DNA of 64,000 bases from the IMG/VR virus record IMGVR_UViG_3300012000_000001, positions 96,001-160,000 of that record; one strand, written 5' to 3'. A program made the position numbers and the translations under genes. Every line of letters starts with the position of its first letter. The first letter of the stretch is position 1. Shown here piece by piece: positions 4,055 through 42,792 of this stretch. Under the pieces are notes generated by a model that saw only the letters and a list, made by a program, of their open reading frames with translations, was not told the DNA's origin and searched no databases. Origin of the DNA: a virus.

Positions 4055-5721
4055 TATGTATTACTTTTTAAGTGAGCATATTGTATAAAGTCTTCATCAA
4101 ACTTAGTATTATTTATTTTTACATTATGTGCTTGGTTATTATTGTCGATTAGAGTATTAATATAGTCTAGTACTCCATTAAAATCAAACGCGGCCATAGA
4201 CATAGCACTACTTTGAACAAAGCCGTAATCGGCGTTGTTTAATAATTCTAGCATTTTGTGAGATCCTATGATTCCAGGATCTTTAAAATTATTATTACAA
4301 ATCGCTATTAGCTGATCAAAATATTCTTGTGGCTGTACGTTGGTTTGTGGTTTGACATTTACTTGATATTCTCCATCATTCCAGTCGGCTCTGTAGCTCT
4401 TGGCATTCAAAGAATCTAGATATTGTTCCCATTTTTTAGCAATAATATCCCAATTATAATACTGATGTGCTAATCCTTGTATTTCATGCCTAAGACTTTC
4501 TCTGGTTGGTGCTGGTTTGTTAATAAAGTCTAGAATATAGTTACTAAGGTCTTCATTATCTGGATAGGCTCTTAGGGCCTTAGTTTCTAGTTCCTTAAAT
4601 AATGTACGAACCTTAATTGGATATGCTTTAAGTTTTTTAACTATGTCGCACATTGCACTATAATTAACTGTAGCAATGGGCACTCCGCAAGCCCCTGCTT
4701 CGACTTGTGGCATCCCAAAGCCTTCGCATATTGAATATTGTATGTATAAATCAAATATGTTATAGATGCTGCTTAGTGTTTCTGGTGTAACGCCGTCAGT
4801 AACTGACGGGAATGTCATTGTTTTGCTCATGCATCTCTTGCATACTTTTTGAGCACCGCTAAAAACAGAACATTCAGTCACTTTGCAACTTTTGCAAATA
4901 TACGTAAAAAGTACCTTATTGGCCACTCTATACTGTCTTAGTAGCTCAGGAATATCCCAACCCATATCAGGGTAGCTGGTGTGTAAATAAAGATATAGGT
5001 TATGTCCTATGGGACTATTGTCTGATTGTAGTTTATCTAACGTTTTTCTAAAAACACTAAATAATTCTGGTATAAGCTTTCGTTTTTGGTTCCTCATAAC
5101 AGAACCAATAATAATGGAGTCTTGAGATAAGCCTAGTTGTTGTTTAACTTCGGCACGGTTTTTAATTTTAAATACATTAATATCCACACCGGGAGATGCT
5201 GTATCTATATAGTTGATTTTATTAGATGACTGCTCTTTTAATACCTCTGCGCCCCAGTCAGAATAAGTAAAAATTGCATCCGCACCTAAAAAAGTATCTA
5301 TCCATTCTTCTTGTTGAGGAGAGGAATCGACCGTTGGCATCAATATCCAATGGAAAAATTTTCGTAGTGGAGACATTGCTTGATAGGCACTCATCCAGTA
5401 GTCTCTAACATCAATGACAACATCTGGCTTAAAGTCTAATAAAACTTTCTCAAATCTCCAGCGACCAAATTGATTGTCTACCCTCGACATATACTCTTTA
5501 TGTCTTGGGTCGGTATCTCTCACCGCATTGGCGTAATATTTCCAATGAATAGAAGAATCTCTAGGATCATTGACAAATCCATATGAAGCAAATTCTGCTA
5601 TTTCATACTTATTTGTTTTGTGCAGCCTAGAGAGTAGCTCTTTCGCATAAATACCGAAACCAGAATTAACAAAGCTGGCTTCTGAACACATTAAGACTTT
5701 AAGTTTGTTTTTTGTCATCAT
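4054..5721 (-). CDS. GT4 family glycosyltransferase with Cys-rich insertion
   Basis: SGFGIYAKELL, IIGSVMRNQKRK, SICEGFGMPQVEAGACGVP (E-x7-E); CKSC...CKRC putative Zn finger. Confidence 0.85.
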   Translation of the reverse strand: MMTKNKLKVLMCSEASFVNSGFGIYAKELLSRLHKTNKYEIAEFASYGFVNDPRDSSIHWKYYANAVRDTDPRHKEYMSRVDNQFGRWRFEKVLLDFKPDVVIDVRDYWMSAYQAMSPLRKFFHWILMPTVDSSPQQEEWIDTFLGADAIFTYSDWGAEVLKEQSSNKINYIDTASPGVDINVFKIKNRAEVKQQLGLSQDSIIIGSVMRNQKRKLIPELFSVFRKTLDKLQSDNSPIGHNLYLYLHTSYPDMGWDIPELLRQYRVANKVLFTYICKSCKVTECSVFSGAQKVCKRCMSKTMTFPSVTDGVTPETLSSIYNIFDLYIQYSICEGFGMPQVEAGACGVPIATVNYSAMCDIVKKLKAYPIKVRTLFKELETKALRAYPDNEDLSNYILDFINKPAPTRESLRHEIQGLAHQYYNWDIIAKKWEQYLDSLNAKSYRADWNDGEYQVNVKPQTNVQPQEYFDQLIAICNNNFKDPGIIGSHKMLELLNNADYGFVQSSAMSMAAFDFNGVLDYINTLIDNNNQAHNVKINNTKFDEDFIQYAHLKSNT

Positions 5722-5724
5722 AAG

Positions 5725-5759
5725 AATACGGGGGTCCGCTATTCACAGACCCCCGCATT
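5725..5759 (-). terminator. GC-rich hairpin downstream of ssb (probable intrinsic terminator)
   Basis: Minus-strand AUGCGGGGGUC...GACCCCCGUAU stem; U-tract is weak (UCUU). Confidence 0.55.
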
Positions 5760-5780
5760 TGTCCTAAATTCCTATCAGAA

Positions 5781-6152
5781 TTAAAATGCTACAGGCTCAG
5801 ATGATTCCTGCTTACTGTTCTTGGTAAGGCGGGTAATCTTAGAGAAGTTATTAACCCTAACCTTAAGACTACTATGCTTAACGCCATCCTTTTCCCATGT
5901 GTCATTACGTAATGATCCTTCGACCATTACTAGATCGCCCTTCTTAAAAGATTCAGCGATCATCTCGGCGCCACTATCCCAAGCCTCACAATTAATAAAG
6001 GATGTAATCTTATCCTTGTCTCCACTGGCCTTGGTATACTCGCGTGATACCGCTACAGTAAAATTGACAACAGATGTTTGCTTGCCTCCAGTATTCACAA
6101 CCCTTAGTTCTGGATCACGAGCAAGATTACCCCTTAGCAATGTTATATTCAT
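5781..6152 (-). CDS. ssb: single-stranded DNA-binding protein
   Basis: MNITLLRGNLARDPELR, FINCEAWD, KKGDLVMVEGSLRNDTW and C-terminal PVAF; start set at MNITLL. Confidence 0.95.
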   Translation of the reverse strand: MNITLLRGNLARDPELRVVNTGGKQTSVVNFTVAVSREYTKASGDKDKITSFINCEAWDSGAEMIAESFKKGDLVMVEGSLRNDTWEKDGVKHSSLKVRVNNFSKITRLTKNSKQESSEPVAF

Positions 6153-6192
6153 TTCAAACTCCTTGGTAAAAAAGAAACCACGCAACTATTAC

Positions 6193-6220
6193 ATTATAGT
6201 GAAGAGCCCCTTTCTGTCAA
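6193..6220 (-). promoter_or_regulatory. sigma70-type promoter upstream of ssb
   Basis: TTGACA-N16-TATAAT on the minus strand. Confidence 0.7.
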
Positions 6221-7842
6221 GCCACGGGCTCAAAACACTTTTCTACGATCAGACCATCCTTGCTTTTGCTTTTATTCCCAGAAAATACTAGAATATTTCC
6301 TAAAAATAAATATGAACGATATTTGGAGAATTGTTCTGGAAATAATACTACCGAATCTAATGTTCCATATTGATCTTCTATAGTAACAAATGCCATCTCC
6401 AACCCTGGATTTTTTCCACTCTTAGTTTTTGTCACATTAATATTACTAATTTCTCCAACCAATACAATATTTTCTTTTAATAAAGATGTTTTAAATGTTT
6501 TACAATTGCAATTGGCCATAGTAATATCATAAACATCTAATTTGGAACACGTAATACCCACACCCAAAAGCTCATTTTCTTGATCGGATAACCATTCAAT
6601 TTTATCGATTAAAGAATATGGTGGATGCTCTAGTGATTTGATATAATTAGATACTGTTTCTTTACGGCCACGAATTAGTTTGGTCTCAACAAACAGCCTT
6701 TGCATAATTTCTTTTACACTGCTACCAATCATTGTTTTAGCATATACATTAAATACTGTTTGTTCTTTCTTTGTTAGGCCGGAACAAATATCGTATTCAA
6801 ATAACATTTCTGATCTATTCTTTTTATAGTAATCAAATGCACCACAGCTAATCAATGCCTTGGCGGCGACAGAATTAATATTCATTAGTATGGTGCCTAT
6901 CATTTCTGGCCAAGATACTTCTGATATATTAACGTTTTTTGTTAGTTGTAAAATTTTAGTATATACAGATTTGCCAACTCCCTTTATATCAGTCAGGCCA
7001 AAGTATATTTTTTTATCTTTTAATACAAAAAACTCATTGGTATTTCTAAAATCAGGAATATGAACTTCTATGTCCATTTCCATCGCATTTCTAACTAATT
7101 CTTTAATTTCTTGTTGTGGATCGATTTTGTCTTTAGCAAACCTTAAATATGATGCGAAGAAAACTTTTGGGAAATGTGCCTTGGCATATGCCGACAAATA
7201 TGCATTCATTGCATAACTGATAGAATGACTAGCATTAAATAAATATCTTTGAGATTTTTCAATCCATTCAAAGATTTGTGCGGCCTCTGCTTCTGATAGT
7301 TTTCCTGTTTTTTTAGCTCCTTCTATAAATTGTTTGCGTACCTTTGCCATCTTGTCAGCCTGTTTTTTTCCAATCGCTTTTCTTAAGTCATCCGCTTCTT
7401 TAAGATTAAAACCAGCTAACTCTTTAGCGATAGACATAGCTTGTTCTTGGTAAATCATTTCAGAATAAGTGTCTTTTAAAATTGGTTCTAATGCCGGATG
7501 AAAATAATCAATAGACTCTAAACCATTTTTCTTATCTATATAATGACTACTTACGCTCTTACCGTCACGATGAGCCTCTAGACACCCCGGCCTTAAAATA
7601 CTAATAAGCCCAGATAGCTGTTCAATATTTTGAGGCTTCAATTTTCTGGCCATGGTTTGACCAAGCCTTGATTCTAATTGAAAGCACCCCTTGGTATTTC
7701 CAGCAGAAATAAGCTCCCATGTTTTATAACAATCAAGACTAATATCAGATAACTTAGGAGAAAATTTAATTTTAGGAAATTCTCCACTTTTGTCCAACAC
7801 TTCAAACTTACAACCGCAATCAAATACAAAAAAGTCTGACAT
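6217..7842 (-). CDS. dnaE: DNA polymerase III alpha subunit, C-terminal half (fingers, HhH, OB fold)
   Basis: GCFQLES, LISILRPG, MIYQEQAM, DLRKAIGKK, YLFNASHS, IYFGLTDIKGVG, MAFVTIEDQYG. Confidence 0.92.
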   Translation of the reverse strand: MSDFFVFDCGCKFEVLDKSGEFPKIKFSPKLSDISLDCYKTWELISAGNTKGCFQLESRLGQTMARKLKPQNIEQLSGLISILRPGCLEAHRDGKSVSSHYIDKKNGLESIDYFHPALEPILKDTYSEMIYQEQAMSIAKELAGFNLKEADDLRKAIGKKQADKMAKVRKQFIEGAKKTGKLSEAEAAQIFEWIEKSQRYLFNASHSISYAMNAYLSAYAKAHFPKVFFASYLRFAKDKIDPQQEIKELVRNAMEMDIEVHIPDFRNTNEFFVLKDKKIYFGLTDIKGVGKSVYTKILQLTKNVNISEVSWPEMIGTILMNINSVAAKALISCGAFDYYKKNRSEMLFEYDICSGLTKKEQTVFNVYAKTMIGSSVKEIMQRLFVETKLIRGRKETVSNYIKSLEHPPYSLIDKIEWLSDQENELLGVGITCSKLDVYDITMANCNCKTFKTSLLKENIVLVGEISNINVTKTKSGKNPGLEMAFVTIEDQYGTLDSVVLFPEQFSKYRSYLFLGNILVFSGNKSKSKDGLIVEKCFEPVA

Positions 7843-7843
7843 A

Positions 7844-8542
7844 TTATCTAATACTAAAAGCTGATTTAAACTTTACCTTTGTCGCTATATTTCTATGTAA
7901 TCTTAAAAATCTAATAAGAATATCCGCCGTATCTCTAACATCTTTTAGAGCATCATGAGCGCCTTCTTTATCTATGCCTAAATAGTCTCTCAGGTTATCG
8001 AGTGTATAATTTTTGAGTTCATTATTTCCTTCAAACCAGTAAAATACCAAATTCATTAAATCTATAACATCTCTTGGATAAAATATATCCGACCTACCCT
8101 CTTTGTTAAGATTATCATATTTTTTACTTAGTCTCTCAATAATCCGAAGATCGAATCTGTTTATATTATAACCAGCTGCAATCGGTGCCGTAAAGCATGA
8201 TTTTTTGCCGGTTGAGCGAGAATGATACATATTCAGGTATGATATGAATAACTTCCAGCCATTTTCTTGTTTTTGATAAGATTTCCAGTCACAAAGAATT
8301 TCTTCTTTGGGCTTTGATCTGACCTTGGCATGAAAATCTAGCACATCAGAATCTGCATATGCATATTCAATATTATTCTCTAGCGCTTCTGGTTTAACAG
8401 TTATATTAAATTCAGAGTCTGGAATAATCTCTAATCGATACGGATCAATCATTAGAGCAGCAATCTGAACGGGGCTACAAAGATCCGGATTAGCCCCGTC
8501 CGTTTCTAAGTCAAATACACAAATTTTTTGTAGATTAGCCAT
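7844..8542 (-). CDS. DEDDh 3'-5' exonuclease (DnaQ/epsilon-like)
   Basis: VFDLETDG (ExoI), AGYNINRFD (ExoII), AHDALKDV (ExoIII). Confidence 0.9.
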   Translation of the reverse strand: MANLQKICVFDLETDGANPDLCSPVQIAALMIDPYRLEIIPDSEFNITVKPEALENNIEYAYADSDVLDFHAKVRSKPKEEILCDWKSYQKQENGWKLFISYLNMYHSRSTGKKSCFTAPIAAGYNINRFDLRIIERLSKKYDNLNKEGRSDIFYPRDVIDLMNLVFYWFEGNNELKNYTLDNLRDYLGIDKEGAHDALKDVRDTADILIRFLRLHRNIATKVKFKSAFSIR

Positions 8543-8714
8543 TCACCACTACTACTGTTGAACCTGGAAAAAATGCCTTTTGGTTAGTGTCTGATGCTAC
8601 CTGACAATTAATTGACCTACAGCAACTAACTCTAACCTCTTCTGTTTTAACGTACTCAACACCGTTGACTGTAAACTGTGTGCCAACGGCAACCTCTTCA
8701 AATTTCTTTTCCAT
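8535..8714 (-). CDS. 59-aa hypothetical protein (not in ORF track)
   Basis: Manual translation MEKKFEEVAVGTQFTVNGVEYVKTEEVRVSCCRSINCQVASDTNQKAFFPGSTVVVVNG; GGAGAG RBS; fills the gap exactly. Confidence 0.8.
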   Translation of the reverse strand: MEKKFEEVAVGTQFTVNGVEYVKTEEVRVSCCRSINCQVASDTNQKAFFPGSTVVVVNG

Positions 8715-8716
8715 AA

Positions 8717-10585
8717 TTACTCTCCATATTGTAATATATCTGATATTGTCATAATCTTATCCAACATTGCAACACCTAGAATATCAAATTTGATCAAACC
8801 AAGACCTTCTAAGTCCTGCATTTCCATACCGGCTATGGCTTGTTTATTTCTGGTGTCATATACCATAGGACATACAGAACTCAGATTTTCACTACTAATA
8901 ACTACACCGGCAGCATGTTTTGATTGATTAGATTTAGTACCCTCTAATCGTATTGCCTGCTCAAATCTTTTTGCCAACGGACCTTCGAGCACGTTGTCAT
9001 TAGATATATAGCACCATTCCTTGAGCTTGTCAACATTATTTTCTAATGCCCACTGAATAATAGAAGCTTCACCGGTATCTTCTTTCATTTCTTGAAGCTC
9101 GTCTGCAATTTTGGCTTCGTCTGGAATATTTTTTGTAATCCTATTCATTTCATCAAACGAAATATTGCCATATACTCTTAAAACTTCTTTAAGAGCCCCT
9201 CTACCTTTCATAGTATTGAAAGTAATCATCTGAGAAACCTTATTTGCACCATACTTATTTTTAATATAGTCAATAATATATTCTCGTTTGGTGATAGGTA
9301 CGTCAACATCTATATCTGGCATGGATATGTGATCGACTGTATTTCGCCCCTCATTATAAAATCTTTCGAATAACAAATCATATTTGATAGGATTAATATC
9401 TGTTATACCTATTAGATATGATACCAGACAACCAGCAGCACTACCTCTTCCGGGACCGGGAAGCCAGCCATGGGATTTAACGTGATTCACAATATCCTGA
9501 ACAATTAGAAAGTAGCTGGACAAACCCGCATTTTGTAAAACACTGAGTTCAAATTTAATTCTGTTTAAATAAGTTTCGTGTTCAGTTTCGGGTATTTTAT
9601 TAGATATTTTATCTCGCCAACCATTTCGGCATAGTTGTCTGAGGTATTCGTCTGGTTCTAAATTATTAGGACAATCAAATTTAGGCAAAGCCGGTTTGCT
9701 TAAAATGCTGTATTCTTCACACAAAGAATCAACATAGAGAGTATTCTCAATTTCTTCTTCTGTGTGTAGTGCAAACATTTCTTCTGGAGACAGAATATGA
9801 TAGTTATCTGACTGAAAAAAACAACTTAGAGGAACTTCCTGATTGGCTAAAAGTTTTTTGTTAACGTCTACTAGTGTTGTTTTAAGATTATTACACAACA
9901 ATATACGTTGATCTATAGCATCCTCTTTATTGCAATAGTGTGCGTCTGGAGTGCAGATTACTTTTGTATTGGTTTTCTGTCCAAGAGCACGAACAAAATC
10001 AGTAACCTCTTGCTGCATAGGGTTTAACACCCTATCCATTAGTTGTACCTCAAGGAAAAAATTTTCTGGACCAAAAATTTCTTTCATCTTGGCTACAAAA
10101 TCTATGCCAGTCTTTTCAGCAGTGTTTGAGGATGTTTCAACCAAATCTGGCAACAAAGACCCTAGGTGGCCACAAAATCCTATAATGTTTCCATCTAAGA
10201 AATTTGCTAATTTATCCATACTAATTCTAGGCTTATGATAAAAATTTTCTTCTCTATTAGTTTCAGAAACTATAGAAATAAGCCTACGCCAACCAGCCAA
10301 GTTTTTAGCCAATACTAAAAAATGACTTAAGCCATTATTTTCTTTAGACTTGATAGTAGAATCATCATGAGAAATATATAGTTCACACCCCAAAATAGGT
10401 TTGATGTTTTGAGCCCTAAGTGCTTGAAAAAACTGTAAGGAACCAGATATGGTGCCATGATCAGTAAGGGCACAAGACTTTATGCCTACACTAGCACATC
10501 TTTGTGCTATTTGATGAGGCTTACTAATTCCATCCAATAAACTGTAGTGAGAATGATTATGCAAAGAGGCGTATGTTTTTGTCAT
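8717..10585 (-). CDS. dnaE: DNA polymerase III alpha subunit, N-terminal half (PHP plus palm)
   Basis: LHNHSHYSLLDG, ALTDHG, PDAHY, GPGRGSAAGCLVSY, MPDIDVD, KHAAGVVI, LIKFDILG. Confidence 0.95.
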   Translation of the reverse strand: MTKTYASLHNHSHYSLLDGISKPHQIAQRCASVGIKSCALTDHGTISGSLQFFQALRAQNIKPILGCELYISHDDSTIKSKENNGLSHFLVLAKNLAGWRRLISIVSETNREENFYHKPRISMDKLANFLDGNIIGFCGHLGSLLPDLVETSSNTAEKTGIDFVAKMKEIFGPENFFLEVQLMDRVLNPMQQEVTDFVRALGQKTNTKVICTPDAHYCNKEDAIDQRILLCNNLKTTLVDVNKKLLANQEVPLSCFFQSDNYHILSPEEMFALHTEEEIENTLYVDSLCEEYSILSKPALPKFDCPNNLEPDEYLRQLCRNGWRDKISNKIPETEHETYLNRIKFELSVLQNAGLSSYFLIVQDIVNHVKSHGWLPGPGRGSAAGCLVSYLIGITDINPIKYDLLFERFYNEGRNTVDHISMPDIDVDVPITKREYIIDYIKNKYGANKVSQMITFNTMKGRGALKEVLRVYGNISFDEMNRITKNIPDEAKIADELQEMKEDTGEASIIQWALENNVDKLKEWCYISNDNVLEGPLAKRFEQAIRLEGTKSNQSKHAAGVVISSENLSSVCPMVYDTRNKQAIAGMEMQDLEGLGLIKFDILGVAMLDKIMTISDILQYGE

Positions 10586-11622
10586 ACCGATCCTGGTGCC
10601 TTATAAGATCCAAAAGAGTGATTCGGGTGTTTGTACAGTTCCATTGTAGTGTCGATACCGTAAAGATCAAGGTCGTGCTTTATCTGCTCGCACTTAGTCA
10701 TTTTCTGTCCAATCTGACACACCTGACCGTCCCTATATTCGACTATGGGTTCGATATTGGTGTTTTCAAATGTGGTTTTACCAAAATGACATAGCTTGCT
10801 ACACATCCAGCTTTTGTTTAGTCTTGGCTTCCGTGTGCTTTTAATAGCTTCAAATTTAGCCCGTAGCATATTCTCAGTATCTGCTAAATCAGAATCATGA
10901 AAACAAATGGTGAATGGTCCGCCATCATTAATAAAATATATCGAAAACATAATATGTTTAATATGTGGATATAAGTGCTTGATAGCATAATGATAAATGC
11001 GTAATTGAGGATCTTTTTCTAGTTTTTCTTGTGTTTTTTCTTCCCCGGTTGCCCAATCAAGCCTTCTGCCTGTTTTCCAGTCTATGATCTCTATAGTATC
11101 CTCATTCACTAAAGTAATAAGGTCTATAGTCCCCTTCATTGCTAAATTACCTGCTATCGTTTGAGACCCAACATTATATGAGTATTTAGCCCATGGTTTT
11201 TTAATCTCAAAATCAAAGTGTTGTTCTGGACACAGTATCTGTCTATTTCTTGGATCAAACATTCCATTATTAAATTTTATAGCCTTATAGACCCAGGCAT
11301 GACAATCCTTATAATCTTTAGCCGACCATTTGTGGTGTTGTGTGAGGTCAGTATAGTGCTTATATACTTGTTCAATAATGCTATTTAAGTTATATTTATT
11401 TACATTTATTAAACCAACTACATCATCGTCAATAGACTCCAAATTATCTTGTTGAGCCTTCTTGATGACTGCTAAAATTTCTAAAACCTTATGGGTAATA
11501 GTGCCTTTGTCTGCCTTTTGGCCAGATAGACCACGCCACCCTAAAACATATTCCCCAAAATATTGTTGTTCACACATTGAGTGTGTATTGTAACTGGAAC
11601 TACGAAAATATGTTATAATCAT
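10582..11622 (-). CDS. PD-(D/E)XK exonuclease, Cas4/AddB-like
   Basis: GTIDLI...IIDWKTG, QLRIYHYA; one N-terminal Cys (SMCEQQY) and C-terminal CSKLC...C cluster. Confidence 0.8.
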   Translation of the reverse strand: MIITYFRSSSYNTHSMCEQQYFGEYVLGWRGLSGQKADKGTITHKVLEILAVIKKAQQDNLESIDDDVVGLINVNKYNLNSIIEQVYKHYTDLTQHHKWSAKDYKDCHAWVYKAIKFNNGMFDPRNRQILCPEQHFDFEIKKPWAKYSYNVGSQTIAGNLAMKGTIDLITLVNEDTIEIIDWKTGRRLDWATGEEKTQEKLEKDPQLRIYHYAIKHLYPHIKHIMFSIYFINDGGPFTICFHDSDLADTENMLRAKFEAIKSTRKPRLNKSWMCSKLCHFGKTTFENTNIEPIVEYRDGQVCQIGQKMTKCEQIKHDLDLYGIDTTMELYKHPNHSFGSYKAPGSV

Positions 11623-19506: not shown

Positions 19507-20096
19507 TAGTCTTTCCGGTATTGAATAAATGGCTCCCAATCAGACAATATGGGCGTACCACATATAGTAGTTAGTTCCTTGTACCAAGGCAAGTACTCCA
19601 CAGAATATCTAGGCTCGACTGGAGACTGCAACAAAGTCATACCAGCTTCGTTAGGAGTTTTATTGCCCTTTTTATGATTACATTGTCTACAGGCAGTGAC
19701 TATATTATACCAGTTGGTTGATGCTTTACGATTGGGCGAGTATCTGCTTTTAGGTATGATATGATCATATGTTAATTGTGAATTAGAACATTTTTGTCCA
19801 CAATATTGACATGTAAAATTATCACGAATAAAAAGATTGTGTCTAGAAAAATTAATCTTTCTATTGTAGAGATTAAAATATCTGATTGTTTTTGCTACAG
19901 AAGGTACGGGAAATCTTTTGTCATTAGGTCCATGAATAAATTTATCTTTATAATAAGATATTATTTCTATACCATAACTGCTATCATTTTCATACTTCAT
20001 AGACCAAACTATAGCACGTTGCCACGAGATTATCCTCAATGGCGTCATATCTGCATTTAATAATAAGCATTTACTGTGTTCAGCTTTGTTGCTCAT
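19506..20096 (-). CDS. HNH endonuclease (McrA-like)
   Basis: CLLLNAD, RDNFTCQYCG, LTYDHIIPKS, NIVTACRQCNHKKGNKTP. Confidence 0.92.
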   Translation of the reverse strand: MSNKAEHSKCLLLNADMTPLRIISWQRAIVWSMKYENDSSYGIEIISYYKDKFIHGPNDKRFPVPSVAKTIRYFNLYNRKINFSRHNLFIRDNFTCQYCGQKCSNSQLTYDHIIPKSRYSPNRKASTNWYNIVTACRQCNHKKGNKTPNEAGMTLLQSPVEPRYSVEYLPWYKELTTICGTPILSDWEPFIQYRKD

Positions 20097-20811
20097 AACC
20101 ATCTAATCTGGATAAAATCTTAGCAATTATAGGATTGCGTACTATATCACAAGACTCCAGTTTAGCACAGCCTATGCCTTCCAAGCCCTGCAATGCATTA
20201 ATCATACCAGCAAATCCACCTTGCAAATGTCTATTTAAATCTGATTGTCCAGTATCTCCTGTTAATACCATTTTACTATCAGTGCCGGTACGAGTTAATA
20301 ACATTTTAAGCTGCTCGTATGAAGCGTTCTGACACTCATCTGCGACAATAAATGCGTTATGAAAGTTTCTGCCTCTCATCAACCCCAGTGGAACAACCTC
20401 TATTCTATTATTTAGTTTAAGTGTTGTATATTGGGCTGTTGATATGAAGTAATTTATTTCATCAAGAACAGGTAAAAGATACGGATGTAATTTCTCTTCT
20501 GCTGATCCTGGTAAATAACCCATCTTTTCTCCTGCTTCCAATATGGGTCGAGTTATGATAATTTTCTTTACCTTCTCGTCAAGCAGATGCTCTATAGCCA
20601 TACCAATTGCAATATGGGTCTTTCCACTACCCGCTAATCCTTGACAGAAGGTTATGGTATTTTCTGCTATCGTTCTAATATACTCTTTTTGATTTTCACT
20701 GCGAGGTTTTAATCTGTTGCGATAAGTTGAAAACGAATTATTGGGTTCTAGAGAATTGGTTAAATCGACTACTTTGGACTTCTTCTTGGAAGCTTTATTG
20801 TTTTTTCTCAA
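20080..20811 (-). CDS. phoH: PhoH-like ATPase
   Basis: GLAGSGKT, IIITRP, GYLPG, MRGRNF, ADECQNA, GDTGQSD; likely TTG start at 20811 after an AAGGA RBS. Confidence 0.93.
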   Translation of the reverse strand: MRKNNKASKKKSKVVDLTNSLEPNNSFSTYRNRLKPRSENQKEYIRTIAENTITFCQGLAGSGKTHIAIGMAIEHLLDEKVKKIIITRPILEAGEKMGYLPGSAEEKLHPYLLPVLDEINYFISTAQYTTLKLNNRIEVVPLGLMRGRNFHNAFIVADECQNASYEQLKMLLTRTGTDSKMVLTGDTGQSDLNRHLQGGFAGMINALQGLEGIGCAKLESCDIVRNPIIAKILSRLDGYEQQS

Positions 20812-20864
20812 GAGTATTCCTTTATAATGTGGGGGACTTATAATTACCAATTATGCATTAATAA

Positions 20865-21324: not shown

Positions 21325-23523
21325 TTATAATAAACATGCTCCGCCAGCACAGCTAATTTCTTCTATACCTACAGTATTATCTTCTGACTCTGATAACTGT
21401 GTATAGTCAACTTTATTATAACTATTGTATAGGTCACAATAAATTTTCCAATTATAAACATCTTTCATACAATATGTTAAACGACGCAAATCAGAATCAA
21501 AATATTTACCGGCAAAATTCTTCATTTTTGTCATAAACTTTAGTTTACTAGCATCATCTGTTTCTTTGACTTGGTTCATGCTAACATAATCACATGCTGC
21601 CCATAAATTATTATTAAATGCATTTAATCCAAGCTCTATTAAGCCAGAGCACCACAATGCAGCATCTCCGTATTCTTTAACAATTTCTCTACTAGTATAG
21701 ACTGTAGTAAATGGAGCTTGTGGATAATCTTTATCTCCACTTTGAGGAATTAAACTAATTCCAGCAAAGTATTTGCGATTATTATAAATATATTTAGTTA
21801 CCTCTTCCCACTCGTCCGGTTTTACTGTTACAGTATTACTCACATTATGACTAAGGTAGTCCTGTGTACATAGTGATCTATTTTTGCCAGAATAAACCCA
21901 ATTTTTCTGAGTTTCTTTGACGACAGCTAACATCTCAGTAGCAGGTAATTGATTCTTTAACTTGGCACCATCCGGCACCTCGATAGGGAACTTAATAACC
22001 TCGTCTGTATTATTAGCAGACCATGAAGACTTCTCACAAGCTTGAGGGTTGTGTTTCTTGAAGTGTTGATATGGTGCTTCTAAAATATTAGCCTGAACAT
22101 GCCTAATGTATCTTTTAGCGTGATGTGGGTGGATACCTGAGCTTGTTCCCAACATTGAGCTAGAAGTGCCTTCTGGTTTTAAGCAAGTTACTCTGGCCGC
22201 TTGATTTATGCCAATTTTTTCAGATATACTCTTATTGGTATCTACAGCGATCTTTGCCCCATTCTTTAATATTTTCTCTGTAAGAATAATATCATGCTTT
22301 TCCATAATACCAGTTAAGGATACGCCAAGTAAGGCTTCTCTGTCGAAAATTCTCTTACTAGTTGCGCCTAGATAATCTAAATTAGTAAATCCAGCTTGTA
22401 GTGTTCCGATGATGGCAGCGGCTCTGCATCTCTCATAAAAATCTTCTTCATCAGTAACTGACGAACAGTTAATGGTTGAAAGATTGCACCCTTGCCATCC
22501 GCTTTCTCCTGTGGTTTCATCAACTGGCCACATACCTACTTCTACACATGGATTAAAAGTCATTTCTGTTGAATCGCTCCAGATAAATCCTGGCTCGCCA
22601 AATTCTTTGACAGATTCCATCAAAGCGTTGAATTCTTCGAAAGTAGTCGAGTCTTTAAGTAATAGGGCTGAGTTATTGCTTCTTGCTCTTTGAGGGTTAT
22701 CAATATACCAATTGCCCGTTTTAGCCTTAGCCATCTCTTCATCATCCGCACTAAACAGAGCTAAAGAAGCACTGCGTCTAACACCACCAGACAGAACAGC
22801 ATCACTGCTATGCATAATAATATCATATGCGTCAATAGGGCGAAGTTTCTTTTGTCCATTGGCGATACATCTATCTAATAGAGTTCTAATTTTTTCTAGA
22901 CCATTTTGAAGTGGTTCGAAACCGGGTGCCTTGCCAACACCGGAAGATAATTTAGATCCCTTAGTTCTAATATTAGAATAATCAAACACTACATATTGGT
23001 CTTTATATTTTTTAAATGCTTCTTCACTAGGTTTAGTAAAGTATGAACTGAGTAATACTCCTAGAGCATCAGCCCAGCCTTCTATGCTATCTTCAATGAT
23101 ATATTTAACACCAACCTCTGGAGTTTTAGGATTTTGTGATAGTGTCGGTAACTTAGATACATGGTGCTTTTGCACACTAAAGCCCGTACCACTACCGCAC
23201 AATAATAACCAAAAACATTCTTGAAAAAATCTTAATCTGTCGCAATAAGAGCTTGTGCAATTATAAATTTTGGCATGTCTTTTTAGGATTGGCTCGCCGC
23301 CAAATTGTAAAGCTCTTTGTGAGCCTAATACTTTCTTTTTAAACATTAGCTCATATGCCCAGTTAATATCTTCGGAGATATTCTTATCGGCATAGAAACT
23401 ATGCATCATGTTTTTAACACGATCTACAGCTTCTTTCCATGTCTCTCTGCGGTTCTTATCTTCGATCCATCTTGCATACTTACTAACAAACGTGTAATTT
23501 TGTAATTCTTGCAGAGCTGACAT
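21325..23523 (-). CDS. nrdJ: class II (adenosylcobalamin-dependent) ribonucleotide reductase
   Basis: RRETWKEAVDR, IYNCTS, GGVRRSA, NPCVE, GCNLS, TCLKPEGTSS, HNVSNTV, C-terminal SCAGGAC. Confidence 0.9.
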   Translation of the reverse strand: MSALQELQNYTFVSKYARWIEDKNRRETWKEAVDRVKNMMHSFYADKNISEDINWAYELMFKKKVLGSQRALQFGGEPILKRHAKIYNCTSSYCDRLRFFQECFWLLLCGSGTGFSVQKHHVSKLPTLSQNPKTPEVGVKYIIEDSIEGWADALGVLLSSYFTKPSEEAFKKYKDQYVVFDYSNIRTKGSKLSSGVGKAPGFEPLQNGLEKIRTLLDRCIANGQKKLRPIDAYDIIMHSSDAVLSGGVRRSASLALFSADDEEMAKAKTGNWYIDNPQRARSNNSALLLKDSTTFEEFNALMESVKEFGEPGFIWSDSTEMTFNPCVEVGMWPVDETTGESGWQGCNLSTINCSSVTDEEDFYERCRAAAIIGTLQAGFTNLDYLGATSKRIFDREALLGVSLTGIMEKHDIILTEKILKNGAKIAVDTNKSISEKIGINQAARVTCLKPEGTSSSMLGTSSGIHPHHAKRYIRHVQANILEAPYQHFKKHNPQACEKSSWSANNTDEVIKFPIEVPDGAKLKNQLPATEMLAVVKETQKNWVYSGKNRSLCTQDYLSHNVSNTVTVKPDEWEEVTKYIYNNRKYFAGISLIPQSGDKDYPQAPFTTVYTSREIVKEYGDAALWCSGLIELGLNAFNNNLWAACDYVSMNQVKETDDASKLKFMTKMKNFAGKYFDSDLRRLTYCMKDVYNWKIYCDLYNSYNKVDYTQLSESEDNTVGIEEISCAGGACLL

Positions 23524-40624: not shown

Positions 40625-41692
40625 TTAATTACCGTTAATATGATTTAAAATGGTTTGTGCTGTATTAGTCCAGGAAAGTTGTCTAGCTGTATTTACACCA
40701 GCATTATTATTAACTATGTTATTATTGACCATATATCGCATGTGGTCTATAAACTGGTCTTTTTCTGAAGCTCCAATTTTAGCCCAATTACCTTGGCCAA
40801 CAAAAGCCTTACCATCATTAGCCTTTTCAGTATTTAGGATATCTACTAAATATGAGTTGTCCGTATTACAAAATTCAGTATGGGCAGAGTAATTAGTCGC
40901 GATAACCGGCTTGTTCATAGCCATACACTCTAATAGCTCCATATTCCAACCCTCTGCTCTAGAAGGAAAAATTCCACAATTAGCTTGAGAAATTAATTTT
41001 GCAATATCTGCGTGATTATTAAAACCTGAAAATATTTTTATATTATCGTGTTTATACATATTTTTCCATTGCTGTATTTCTGTCGGTGAAGAATAGGAAT
41101 TTGTTGTTTCTGAAGCTAAAATCCATAATTCTACATTATTATTATTTGGAAAAGCATTCGTAAATAATTCTAATAAAATATCATGACCTTTACGAACTTC
41201 CCATTTTCCTATGTTGATAAACACATATTTATCTGATGATGGTGAAACATTGTTATATTTGACCGGATCGAATAAAGACAAGTCCACCCCTAGCGGAGCC
41301 ACAAATGTAGGAGTATTAACGTGATTGGATATTATATTTGCTGCCCATTTACTGGTAGCGAAAATTCCATTGGGGACTCTAAGACTATTGATTTCTATAT
41401 CATTAAAAGTGTCTAATTCAAAAAAAGGAAAAGCAAAATATTTTCCACGACCAACGTGTTCTAATAAATCAAATTGGTGCCAAATTTTAAGAAAGGGCGC
41501 ATTGATATCACATAAATATCTTTGCTTTAATATTTGTATTACATAGTCATGATCTGATTGAGACTCGACTGAAGGTTGTCCTATAGGAAAATAAGATATT
41601 GTATTTCCCGATGCGTTTAAAGCCTTAATTATATTAAATGAAGCAATACCGTAGCCGGTACTGTTTATGGGCGCTGCTAAGTTAATATTCAT
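40625..41692 (-). CDS. GT4 family glycosyltransferase
   Basis: TGYGIAS, FINIGKWEVRKG, FPSRAEGWNMELLECMAMNKPVIAT. Confidence 0.88.
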   Translation of the reverse strand: MNINLAAPINSTGYGIASFNIIKALNASGNTISYFPIGQPSVESQSDHDYVIQILKQRYLCDINAPFLKIWHQFDLLEHVGRGKYFAFPFFELDTFNDIEINSLRVPNGIFATSKWAANIISNHVNTPTFVAPLGVDLSLFDPVKYNNVSPSSDKYVFINIGKWEVRKGHDILLELFTNAFPNNNNVELWILASETTNSYSSPTEIQQWKNMYKHDNIKIFSGFNNHADIAKLISQANCGIFPSRAEGWNMELLECMAMNKPVIATNYSAHTEFCNTDNSYLVDILNTEKANDGKAFVGQGNWAKIGASEKDQFIDHMRYMVNNNIVNNNAGVNTARQLSWTNTAQTILNHINGN

Positions 41693-42792
41693 TAAACACC
41701 TAAAATTGGATTGTTGTTATTATGTATTTTATTGACTTTACAGAATTGGCTGCATTTAGCCATGTATTTGATATGAGAGGCTCCTACATAGCAACAACAT
41801 GAGCGGATTCCTCCCAATAACTCTTGCGTAACTTCACCGATTGTTCCTTTGTAATTAACTGTTATTTTTGTTCCTTCGGATGCTCTGTAGTCTTTTGTTC
41901 CATCTTCAAATGTGTCTTGTGAATGATGCGTGCTCATCCCATAATACGTAAATCTGCCCTTGGTTTTTTTATCAGTTCCAACTATTGTTGAATAATCTCC
42001 GCCTAATTCCCACTCTCCTTCGCACGGCTCGCTACCAGCAAAATATCCTCCGAGCATCACAAAGTCACTACCAGCACATAAAGCCTTACATACATCTCCA
42101 ACAGTTCTATGTCCTCCATCAGAACATATTAATCCAAGCTTTTTAGCTCCGTTTTGAAGACCGTGGGCTACATAGGCATTTTCTAAACAACAGGACAATT
42201 GAGGCACTCCGCAGCCTGTCAAGAACCTTGTAGTACAAGCTGACCCTCCTCCTATTCCGGTTTTTACAATATCAACACCACCATATATCAATAATTCCTG
42301 AGTAGATGAGGTATTCGTAACATTACCAGCTATGATAATAGACTCAGAGAATTGATCCCTAACTTTTTTGCAATATTTTACAAACACATCCATGTGTCCA
42401 TTAGGAACATCTATGCAAATATTAGGTTGTTTTCCAAGTTTGTCCTTGAGTTCTAGCAGGTGATTGAGGTCGCTTTTCTTGTATCCAATAGAGACAAAAG
42501 TATAGTCAAGATTATTAGGATGGTCGGTAAAATACTGCAACAAACTATCAACCGAATGATACTTGTGTAAACAGGCTATCATTTTTAGTTTTGCCAGTTC
42601 TTGAGCTAATCCAAATGAGCAGAAACTCATATTCGCACACATAATGGGTATTCCCGTCCATTGTCTGGGAGAATGATAAAAATTAAATGTGCGTTCCAAA
42701 TGAATTTCTGAACGACTAGTCAGTGTTGATCTTTGAGGTACTATTAAAACATCATCAAAATCAAGCTTAAGTTCATCAATAATTTTTTGCAT
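41692..42792 (-). CDS. guaC: GMP reductase
   Basis: LDFDDVLIVP, IDVPNGH, KTGIGGGSACTTR, SDGG, FVMLGG, YGMS, YRASEG. Confidence 0.9.
   Translation of the reverse strand: MQKIIDELKLDFDDVLIVPQRSTLTSRSEIHLERTFNFYHSPRQWTGIPIMCANMSFCSFGLAQELAKLKMIACLHKYHSVDSLLQYFTDHPNNLDYTFVSIGYKKSDLNHLLELKDKLGKQPNICIDVPNGHMDVFVKYCKKVRDQFSESIIIAGNVTNTSSTQELLIYGGVDIVKTGIGGGSACTTRFLTGCGVPQLSCCLENAYVAHGLQNGAKKLGLICSDGGHRTVGDVCKALCAGSDFVMLGGYFAGSEPCEGEWELGGDYSTIVGTDKKTKGRFTYYGMSTHHSQDTFEDGTKDYRASEGTKITVNYKGTIGEVTQELLGGIRSCCCYVGASHIKYMAKCSQFCKVNKIHNNNNPILGV

Follow-up and report, generated by a model that had tools for sequence, protein, structure and literature searches.

A DnaE-type DNA polymerase encoded in two genes without inteins, with an exonuclease gene at the break, in an uncultured freshwater phage

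Background

C-family DNA polymerases are the replicases of bacteria. For a full-length DnaE, splits that occur in nature have been described only with an intein that rejoins the halves. We analysed a locus of an uncultured freshwater phage with a genome of about 197 kb (IMG/VR virus record IMGVR_UViG_3300012000_000001), in which the gene for a DnaE-type DNA polymerase III (Pol III) alpha subunit is divided into two genes, DnaE-N and DnaE-C. Between them lie the genes for a microprotein of 59 amino acids (aa), here called s59, and for a DEDDh 3'-5' exonuclease. The window, by which we mean the whole stretch of DNA analysed (64,000 nucleotides, nt), corresponds to positions 96001-160000 of the 197,026-bp record, which CheckV rates as complete (100%). 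The phage has a very large group of aquatic relatives. The best matches from cultured phages had at most 35% identity, and a blastn search against cultured phages gave no match.

The split dnaE of cyanobacteria and the 'fractured' dnaE of metagenomes consist of two genes with split inteins, in the fractured type with a free-standing endonuclease between them (Dassa et al., PMC2677866). In that system the halves are ligated into one chain, whereas the halves described here carry neither a Hint domain nor extensions of intein length. The split site also differs, and the gene between the halves codes for a homing endonuclease there and for an exonuclease plus a microprotein here. Like the cassette described here, the fractured type has a gene between the halves and occurs in environmental phage-like loci. 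Polymerases in two non-covalently associated parts are known from the B-family. The split gp43A/43B of Aeromonas phage 25 co-purify and are active, a different gene lies within the polymerase break, and phage 44RR also has such a split (PMC2988022), while DNAP-N and DNAP-C of PhiKZ form a stable 1:1 complex (PMC13648687). The polymerase analysed here, in contrast, is of the C-family, is broken between palm and fingers, and belongs to a much larger and older clade. T4-like jumbo phages possess a split 'minimal' Pol III alpha without inteins, encoded by distant genes alongside a family B replicase (PMC7824862). That version is a minimal nucleotidyltransferase core devoid of the other Pol III alpha domains and cut inside the catalytic module, whereas our phage has a full-length DnaE as its sole polymerase, encoded by adjacent genes.

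Rossellomorea phage phiT1 (PV767480) carries a split as plain annotation: among gp20, gp19 and gp18 there are two coding sequences named 'DNA polymerase III subunit alpha' with a 49-aa open reading frame (ORF) between them. The phiT1 polymerase is cut at the same linker (it ends ...KFDLLGLKTLKVIQNSVDQINQGVAV and restarts MFDILDIPLDD...). However, its identity to ours is 33% and 29%, there is no exonuclease between its halves, it lacks the Cys-Gly-Cys head described below, and its 49-aa ORF is not detectably related to s59. Our literature searches turned up no account of a full-length DnaE that is split without an intein, or of the cassette formed by the four genes.

Two genes encode a complete DnaE

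The cassette consists of the following genes:

8717-10585, minus strand: DnaE-N, 622 aa, with a PHP domain (PHP for polymerase and histidinol phosphatase), the whole palm including its three catalytic Asp, and ~18 residues from the start of the fingers
8535-8714, minus strand: s59 ORF, a 59-aa microprotein
7844-8542, minus strand: DEDDh 3'-5' exonuclease, 232 aa
6217-7842, minus strand: DnaE-C, 541 aa, with the remaining fingers, the helix-hairpin-helix (HhH) domain and the oligonucleotide/oligosaccharide-binding (OB) fold

An earlier sequence-only reading of this stretch had described the two halves with the small ORF and the DEDDh exonuclease between them, and every detail was confirmed at the stated coordinates. 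The N-half is separated from s59 by 2 nt and the exonuclease from the C-half by 1 nt, and s59 and the exonuclease overlap by 8 nt. The respective junctions read GGAGAG-TAA-TT-ATG, TAA-T-ATG and, for the overlap, ATGGCTAA. From the stop codon of the N-half (8717-8719) to the restart of the C-half at 7842 there is an insert of 875 nt, and this stop and restart are conserved in every split relative. No terminator-like sites were predicted inside the cassette, and promoter-like matches did not exceed the shuffled background.

DnaE-N matches the Pfam families PHP (PF02811, 5.6e-34), uninterrupted over residues 8-181, and DNA_pol3_alpha (PF07733, 1.2e-74), the latter over positions 1-260 of 260, with the palm model ending at residue 604. 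The motif PDIDVD occupies residues 423-428 and KFDILG residues 599-604, and the chain ends 18 residues later. DnaE-C matches DNA_pol3_finger (PF17657, positions 21-166 of 166, 3.5e-44) and HHH_6 (PF14579, 4.9e-09). Its OB fold is weak in Pfam, with 24.8 bits, which is below the cut-off of 27. On the NCBIfam DnaE model NF004226 (length 1146) the N-half covers positions 4-569 and the C-half positions 583-1052, and judged by these alignments nothing is missing at the junction of the two halves. The PHP domain, the palm Asp triad and the fingers, HhH (beta-binding) and OB regions of a DnaE-type polymerase are all there, in the same order as in the single-chain enzymes of Taq (2HPI/3E0D) and E. coli (2HNH/5FKU), but they do not form a single polypeptide.

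We counted residue conservation over 56-69 non-identical relatives (69 for the N-half, 62 for the exonuclease and 56 for the C-half). The catalytic residues D424, D426 and D601 are invariant, the nine metal ligands of the PHP domain (H9, H11, D18, H43, E68, H88, H140, D214 and H216) are all conserved, and so is the finger motif FQLES. In E. coli alpha, unlike in the phage protein, the PHP metal site is not intact (on the topic, see PMC3919608). Both halves are, to judge from their residues, under purifying selection.

DnaE-N can be aligned to Taq alpha until residue 625 and to E. coli alpha until residue 563, with ~13 more residues following, and DnaE-C aligns from residue 648 of Taq alpha and residue 586 of E. 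coli alpha. The chain that is single in E. coli is therefore broken in the phage at about E. coli residues 576-586, some 20 residues past the third catalytic Asp, a site that we take from published domain limits to be just inside the fingers. DnaE-C starts MSDFFVFDCGCKF, and the alignment to other DnaE proteins resumes at its residue 31-34. The tail of the N-half is the following feature:

8720-8761, minus strand: N-half tail, residues 609-622, DKIMTISDILQYGE, past the point where the alignment to Taq alpha stops

Positions 1-20 of the finger model are missing from the C-half, and the palm model of P0009, a contiguous relative, is followed by the finger model after 3 residues. From this spacing, the N-half tail (14-18 residues) is probably the first finger helix, provided in trans. 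Split forms are ~25-30 residues longer than unsplit relatives, and almost all of the surplus lies in the head of the C-half. As palm and fingers are on different chains, neither chain could polymerise alone.

The genome has one match to PF07733, and no family A or B polymerase (PolA, PolB) is recognisable in the complete record. Given that this is the sole recognisable polymerase, a non-covalent two-chain enzyme is the best reading of the locus. No beta clamp or clamp loader could be recognised in the 197-kb genome, and a tau-binding C-terminal region was not detected in this polymerase. The conserved sequence RSEMLF in DnaE-C was considered as a clamp-binding motif and rejected, as its counterpart in the alignment to other DnaE proteins is a structural helix that follows GAFD.

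Conservation of the break

A scan of viral contigs in IMG/VR confirmed 229 relatives, of which 80 were kept and examined for gene order, each as far as its contig extends. The order PD-(D/E)XK nuclease, N-half, small ORF, exonuclease, C-half and single-stranded DNA-binding protein (SSB) is kept in 80/80 loci, at 57-95% identity. We also searched 1.84 billion representative proteins exhaustively and took the best 150, of which 144 span the split region. In 137 of these 144 (37-67% identity) the protein ends at this site. The other seven comprise four contiguous proteins, two in which an intein piece follows the fingers and forms the end, and one fusion to a cpYpsA SLOG domain. The last, P0140 (762 aa), is a split-type N-half that carries a circularly permuted YpsA SLOG domain (PF12694, 1.6e-35) at its C-terminus. 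This answers the survey of the split site that the sequence-only reading had proposed: nearly all split lineages have their N-half stop 0-7 residues from one common site, with a maximum of 16. The conserved pattern is far above chance.

We also considered whether the split comes from faulty assembly or sequencing, or whether the gene is a pseudogene that broke recently, and found nothing in favour of this. DNA contigs from other lake studies are colinear with the record, one of 66 kb (X4) with 0 differences and another (X8) with 4 single-nucleotide polymorphisms, so independent studies recovered the identical arrangement. All 80 loci, which stem from many metagenomes, show this gene order as far as their contigs extend, more than 100 independent assemblies carry the split, and the catalytic residues are invariant in what is the only recognisable polymerase. 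We consider such an origin negligible.

Two relatives with 64-67% identity (L125 and L126) are contigs within metagenome-assembled genomes named 'bacterium WB4_3_0875' and 'Alphaproteobacteria bacterium LLD_269'. Phage contigs were probably mis-binned here, and they give at most a faint hint of the host.

Search for a rejoining device

We searched both halves against the Pfam Hint families (E < 0.01) and obtained no match in either, in line with the lack of intein motifs noticed before; the same search was positive in the relatives L085, P0007, P0024 and P0010. No intein-like ends were seen at either side of the junction. The extensions at the junction are 14 aa in the N-half and 33 aa in the C-half, and these are too short for split inteins because the described N-parts are 88-105 aa long (PMC2677866). 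Rfam showed no intron at the locus.

The sequence-only reading had named RNA splicing as a way in which the halves might be joined. In a metatranscriptome, a contig of 10.8 kb is colinear with the DNA over 5700-11274, and in a second RNA run the contigs 7814-8304 and 8493-8849 bridge both junctions. No splice joints were seen in the RNA contigs of either run. It speaks against a two-chain enzyme, as a caution, that RNA contigs can hide a rare spliced form and that RNA libraries may contain DNA.

The halves could in principle be joined covalently by unrecognised protein splicing, by RNA splicing or trans-splicing, or by translational bypass over the 875-nt insert, and related environmental DnaE proteins do use split inteins (PMC2677866; also L085, P0007 and P0024). 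Apart from the missing inteins, introns and joints, the insert is filled by two genes that are conserved at the protein level and confidently folded in models (predicted local distance difference test, pLDDT, 94.5 and 90.7), and in one relative (L093) the C-half is at least 6 kb distant. Covalent joining by any of these routes appears very improbable. As nothing was found to splice the halves, the enzyme probably assembles without a covalent join, and we regard a non-covalent assembly of DnaE-N (alphaN) with DnaE-C (alphaC) as likely. Of the heterodimer without intein proposed by the sequence-only reading, the genuine, conserved split is thus supported, and the halves most likely assemble non-covalently; its proposal for the exonuclease is taken up in the next section.

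The DEDDh exonuclease between the halves

The exonuclease contains the motifs FDLETDG, GYNINRFD and HDALKD and is matched by RNase_T in Pfam (1.2e-10) and, among the PHROG families, by phrog_192, 'DNA polymerase exonuclease subunit' (1.1e-21). Its residues D11, E13, D131, H196 and D201 are invariant in the 62 relatives, and it is the only RNase_T match in the genome. The AlphaFold2 (AF2) model (pLDDT 90.7) includes a helical insert of ~40 residues and a tail with pLDDT of 57-70. The best fold matches were the exonuclease domain of PolC (2p1j, the top one), ExoI, RNase T and DnaQ domains (Foldseek 1e-8 to 1e-6). PolC likewise combines an intact PHP domain with a DEDDh exonuclease, but there the exonuclease is inserted in the PHP domain of a single chain, while in the phage it is a separate protein whose gene lies between palm and fingers. 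PolC models of NCBIfam reached 107-115 bits against cut-offs of 873-1043.

The last dozen residues of the exonuclease include the motif K-x-K-F-x-x-x-F, in which K222 and F225 are invariant and F229 nearly so, and the motif is retained in homologues of 35-42% identity. Because it is conserved and yet modelled with low pLDDT, the tail suggests a docking peptide.

As in the E. coli Pol III core (alpha, epsilon and theta), the polymerase is accompanied by a DEDDh exonuclease and by a small accessory protein, each with a gene of its own. The sequence-only reading had taken the exonuclease for the polymerase's own epsilon-like subunit. Several observations weigh against a subunit of this kind. The protein resembles epsilon at the superfamily level only: by NCBIfam it is a generic DEDDh exonuclease and not an epsilon equivalog (NF005927, 15.6 bits against a cut-off of 186). 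Fusions of the exonuclease with DnaE, or with any longer protein, were not found, which is weak evidence. The gene lies outside dnaE in the unsplit relatives L086 and L098 and is absent from the split of phiT1. All nine PHP ligands are intact, and in DnaE1 enzymes with an intact PHP this domain is the proofreader (PMC5636811), so that a DEDDh subunit is not required. The PHP domain of DnaE-N may accordingly proofread by itself. The proposed epsilon-like assignment is supported only in part.

The same observations fit an alternative in which the polymerase has two chains but the exonuclease and the microprotein are an independent cassette that sits in a permissive linker of dnaE, with the PHP domain proofreading. 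The role of such a cassette could lie, for example, in recombination or repair, in the processing of ends, or in nucleotide salvage in the manner of other free-standing DEDDh nucleases of phages. It would also suit L098, where a homologous microprotein of ~80 aa lies directly upstream of the exonuclease and away from the unsplit dnaE (E 3e-13), and L086, where the exonuclease follows ssb. Yet the exonuclease is found within the replication module, few genes from dnaE, in every lineage seen, and in L085 and L101 it stands immediately upstream of the C-half despite genes inserted after the N-half. Its conserved tail suggests a protein partner, and in mycobacteria an intact PHP domain and DnaQ can both proofread (PMC11348249). 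We consider the independent cassette the main alternative, though less likely than not. For the exonuclease as a bound proofreading subunit, a role to which synteny, tight gene packing, the tail motif and the lack of a second such gene in the genome point, we see the chances as evenly balanced.

The microprotein s59 and the head of DnaE-C

In an alignment of 38 sequences (A1), residues G11, F14, K23, C31 and C32 of s59 are invariant. The AF2 model (pLDDT 94.5) is a six-stranded SH3-like beta-barrel with Cys31-Cys32 in a hairpin loop formed by residues 29-33. The nearest folds in the PDB, domain I of EF-P/eIF5A, were reached at E 0.14 only. Searches of Pfam, PHROG and NCBIfam gave no match for s59, and its nearest ESM Atlas clusters are virus-only. 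The small subunit of the E. coli core, theta (HolE), has a helical fold; s59 is modelled as all-beta and matches no theta family. That the microprotein is a subunit at all is a tentative suggestion, for which we put the chances somewhat below even.

The second element is found at the start of the C-half:

7744-7842, minus strand: C-half head, DnaE-C residues 1-33, with Cys9-Gly-Cys11; Cys38 lies just past the head

C9 is present in 52/56 relatives, and C11 and C38 in 53/56. According to the junction alignments, the head is absent from the contiguous L086 and L098, and also from L070, L094/L095 and phiT1. We considered a strict metal clasp between the Cys-Cys of s59 and the Cys-Gly-Cys of the head and rejected it, as there are exceptions in both directions: s59 without a head in L070, a Cys-Cys microprotein without a head in L094 and L095, and a head without detectable s59 in L085. 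Homology of s59 to the 49-aa ORF of phiT1 or to the ~80-aa microproteins of other relatives is likewise unsupported; they share only Cys-Cys. The microprotein s59, the Cys-Gly-Cys head and the exonuclease tail are new elements described here.

A further idea is that the microprotein and the exonuclease form a movable cassette that has entered or left one dnaE linker several times, and that the split replicase is a four-protein core in which the halves and the exonuclease are clamped by the Cys-Cys hairpin, the Cys-Gly-Cys head and the exonuclease tail, possibly via a shared metal site. We consider this unlikely. If it were true, a DEDDh proofreader would sit at the palm-fingers junction, unlike in alpha-epsilon-theta and in PolC.

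Variant relatives and changes of the split state

The sequence-only reading had named a contiguous gene in relatives as a sign of an assembly artefact. Contiguous relatives do exist (L086, L098, P0009, P0030 and P0093), but they belong to separate lineages with at most 50% identity. L086 and L098 have an unsplit DnaE of 1134 and 1144 aa, respectively, with ~49% identity in the N region. The exonuclease is located two genes downstream of dnaE in L086 and two genes upstream of it in L098. In the latter, the ORF directly upstream of the exonuclease has 83 aa and is homologous to the microproteins of L095 and L093 (E 3e-13 and 5e-16), with loss of Cys-Cys and the later Cys. A pair of microprotein and exonuclease is therefore not tied to the split. 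In this region of L098 (3908-5998), a 357-aa helix-turn-helix protein with repeated HNH-like motifs separates the exonuclease from dnaE.

Among the split relatives, L095 has the order N-half, 82-aa ORF, exonuclease, C-half. In L101 (8059-10608) the s59 homologue and the exonuclease are kept apart by an inserted gene for an RCC1-repeat protein of 849 aa. The DnaE of L085 (5226-8356) comes in three pieces: a split intein with a TnsA/Endo I-like endonuclease interrupts the palm, and the usual intein-less break follows, so that both types of break occur in one gene. Its first piece contains the PHP domain, the start of the palm and the N-part of a Hint domain, the endonuclease is free-standing, and the second piece contains the remaining palm. 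L093 (7917-12972) has, after its N-half and a microprotein of 75 aa, metabolic genes over at least 6 kb (glyoxalase, aldehyde dehydrogenase, DDAH-like, class-III aminotransferase and UDP-glucose dehydrogenase), without C-half or exonuclease there, and a scan for the C-half gave no match on the L093 contig. With the C-half at least 6 kb away, the halves of this relative are independent genes.

Trees of the N region place the unsplit forms in two distinct groups, both well supported, within a clade dominated by split forms, and the split state must have changed, by gain or loss, three times or more. That the split arose once and was never reversed is disfavoured (difference in log-likelihood, delta lnL, 105; approximately unbiased test, p-AU 0.034), for a group that was chosen after the tree had been seen. 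Other DnaE genes of cultured or faecal phages that we checked are contiguous and show no split. Some PHROG families match DnaE only in part: phrog_13169 and phrog_7513 cover about the first 415 residues, phrog_12219 begins from ~422, and phrog_11165 lacks the PHP domain. Breaks of DnaE genes at other sites may therefore occur in cultured phages as well.

Neighbouring genes

The cassette is flanked by the following features:

10582-11622, minus strand: PD-(D/E)XK nuclease, upstream neighbour (Pfam PDDEXK_1, 2e-14)
5781-6185, minus strand: SSB, downstream neighbour (Pfam SSB, 1.7e-25, match from residue 12)
6193-6220, minus strand: sigma-70 consensus, TTGACA, 16 nt, TATAAT, 12/12 (a pattern match only)

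The PD-(D/E)XK gene precedes DnaE-N in 80/80 loci, and the SSB gene follows DnaE-C in every locus that extends so far. As the Pfam match begins at residue 12 of the ORF, the true start of ssb is probably the ATG at 6152. The sigma-70 consensus overlaps the stop codon of DnaE-C, just upstream of ssb.

Elsewhere in the window, genes for an IMPDH/GMP-reductase-family protein (41692-42792), a class II (B12) ribonucleotide reductase-like protein (21325-23523) and phoH (20080-20850), all on the minus strand, share a minus-strand block with the replication genes. A full-length actin homologue of the Volactin family (PF25216, 3.6e-64) and a RuvB-like AAA+ protein are encoded at 61461-62462 and 62890-63780, also on the minus strand.

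Discussion

In the explanation we favour, the replicative polymerase of this phage would be a DnaE-type Pol III alpha made of two polypeptides. The chain alphaN would contribute the PHP domain, the whole palm with its three Asp and the first finger helix, and alphaC the remaining fingers together with the OB fold and the HhH domain, which binds the duplex. Both chains would rebuild a single active site non-covalently, as a natural case of fragment complementation at a surface linker (E. coli alpha ~576-586), and the four tightly packed genes probably deliver the parts together. The DEDDh exonuclease would be a second, epsilon-like 3'-5' exonuclease beside the intact PHP site, perhaps docked via its C-terminal tail, and s59 might be a small accessory of the exonuclease or of the polymerase. 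Taken as a whole, we hold this explanation to be probable.

Abundant and diverse aquatic phages thus appear to depend on a DnaE active site formed from two chains, with the Asp triad of the palm on one and the nucleotide-binding fingers on the other. For annotation, this means that such genes are easily miscalled as two polymerases or as a broken gene. The break offers a natural fragment-complementation site in Pol III alpha, and the four-gene cassette is a tractable system for the question of how proofreading is shared between a DEDDh exonuclease and an intact PHP domain.

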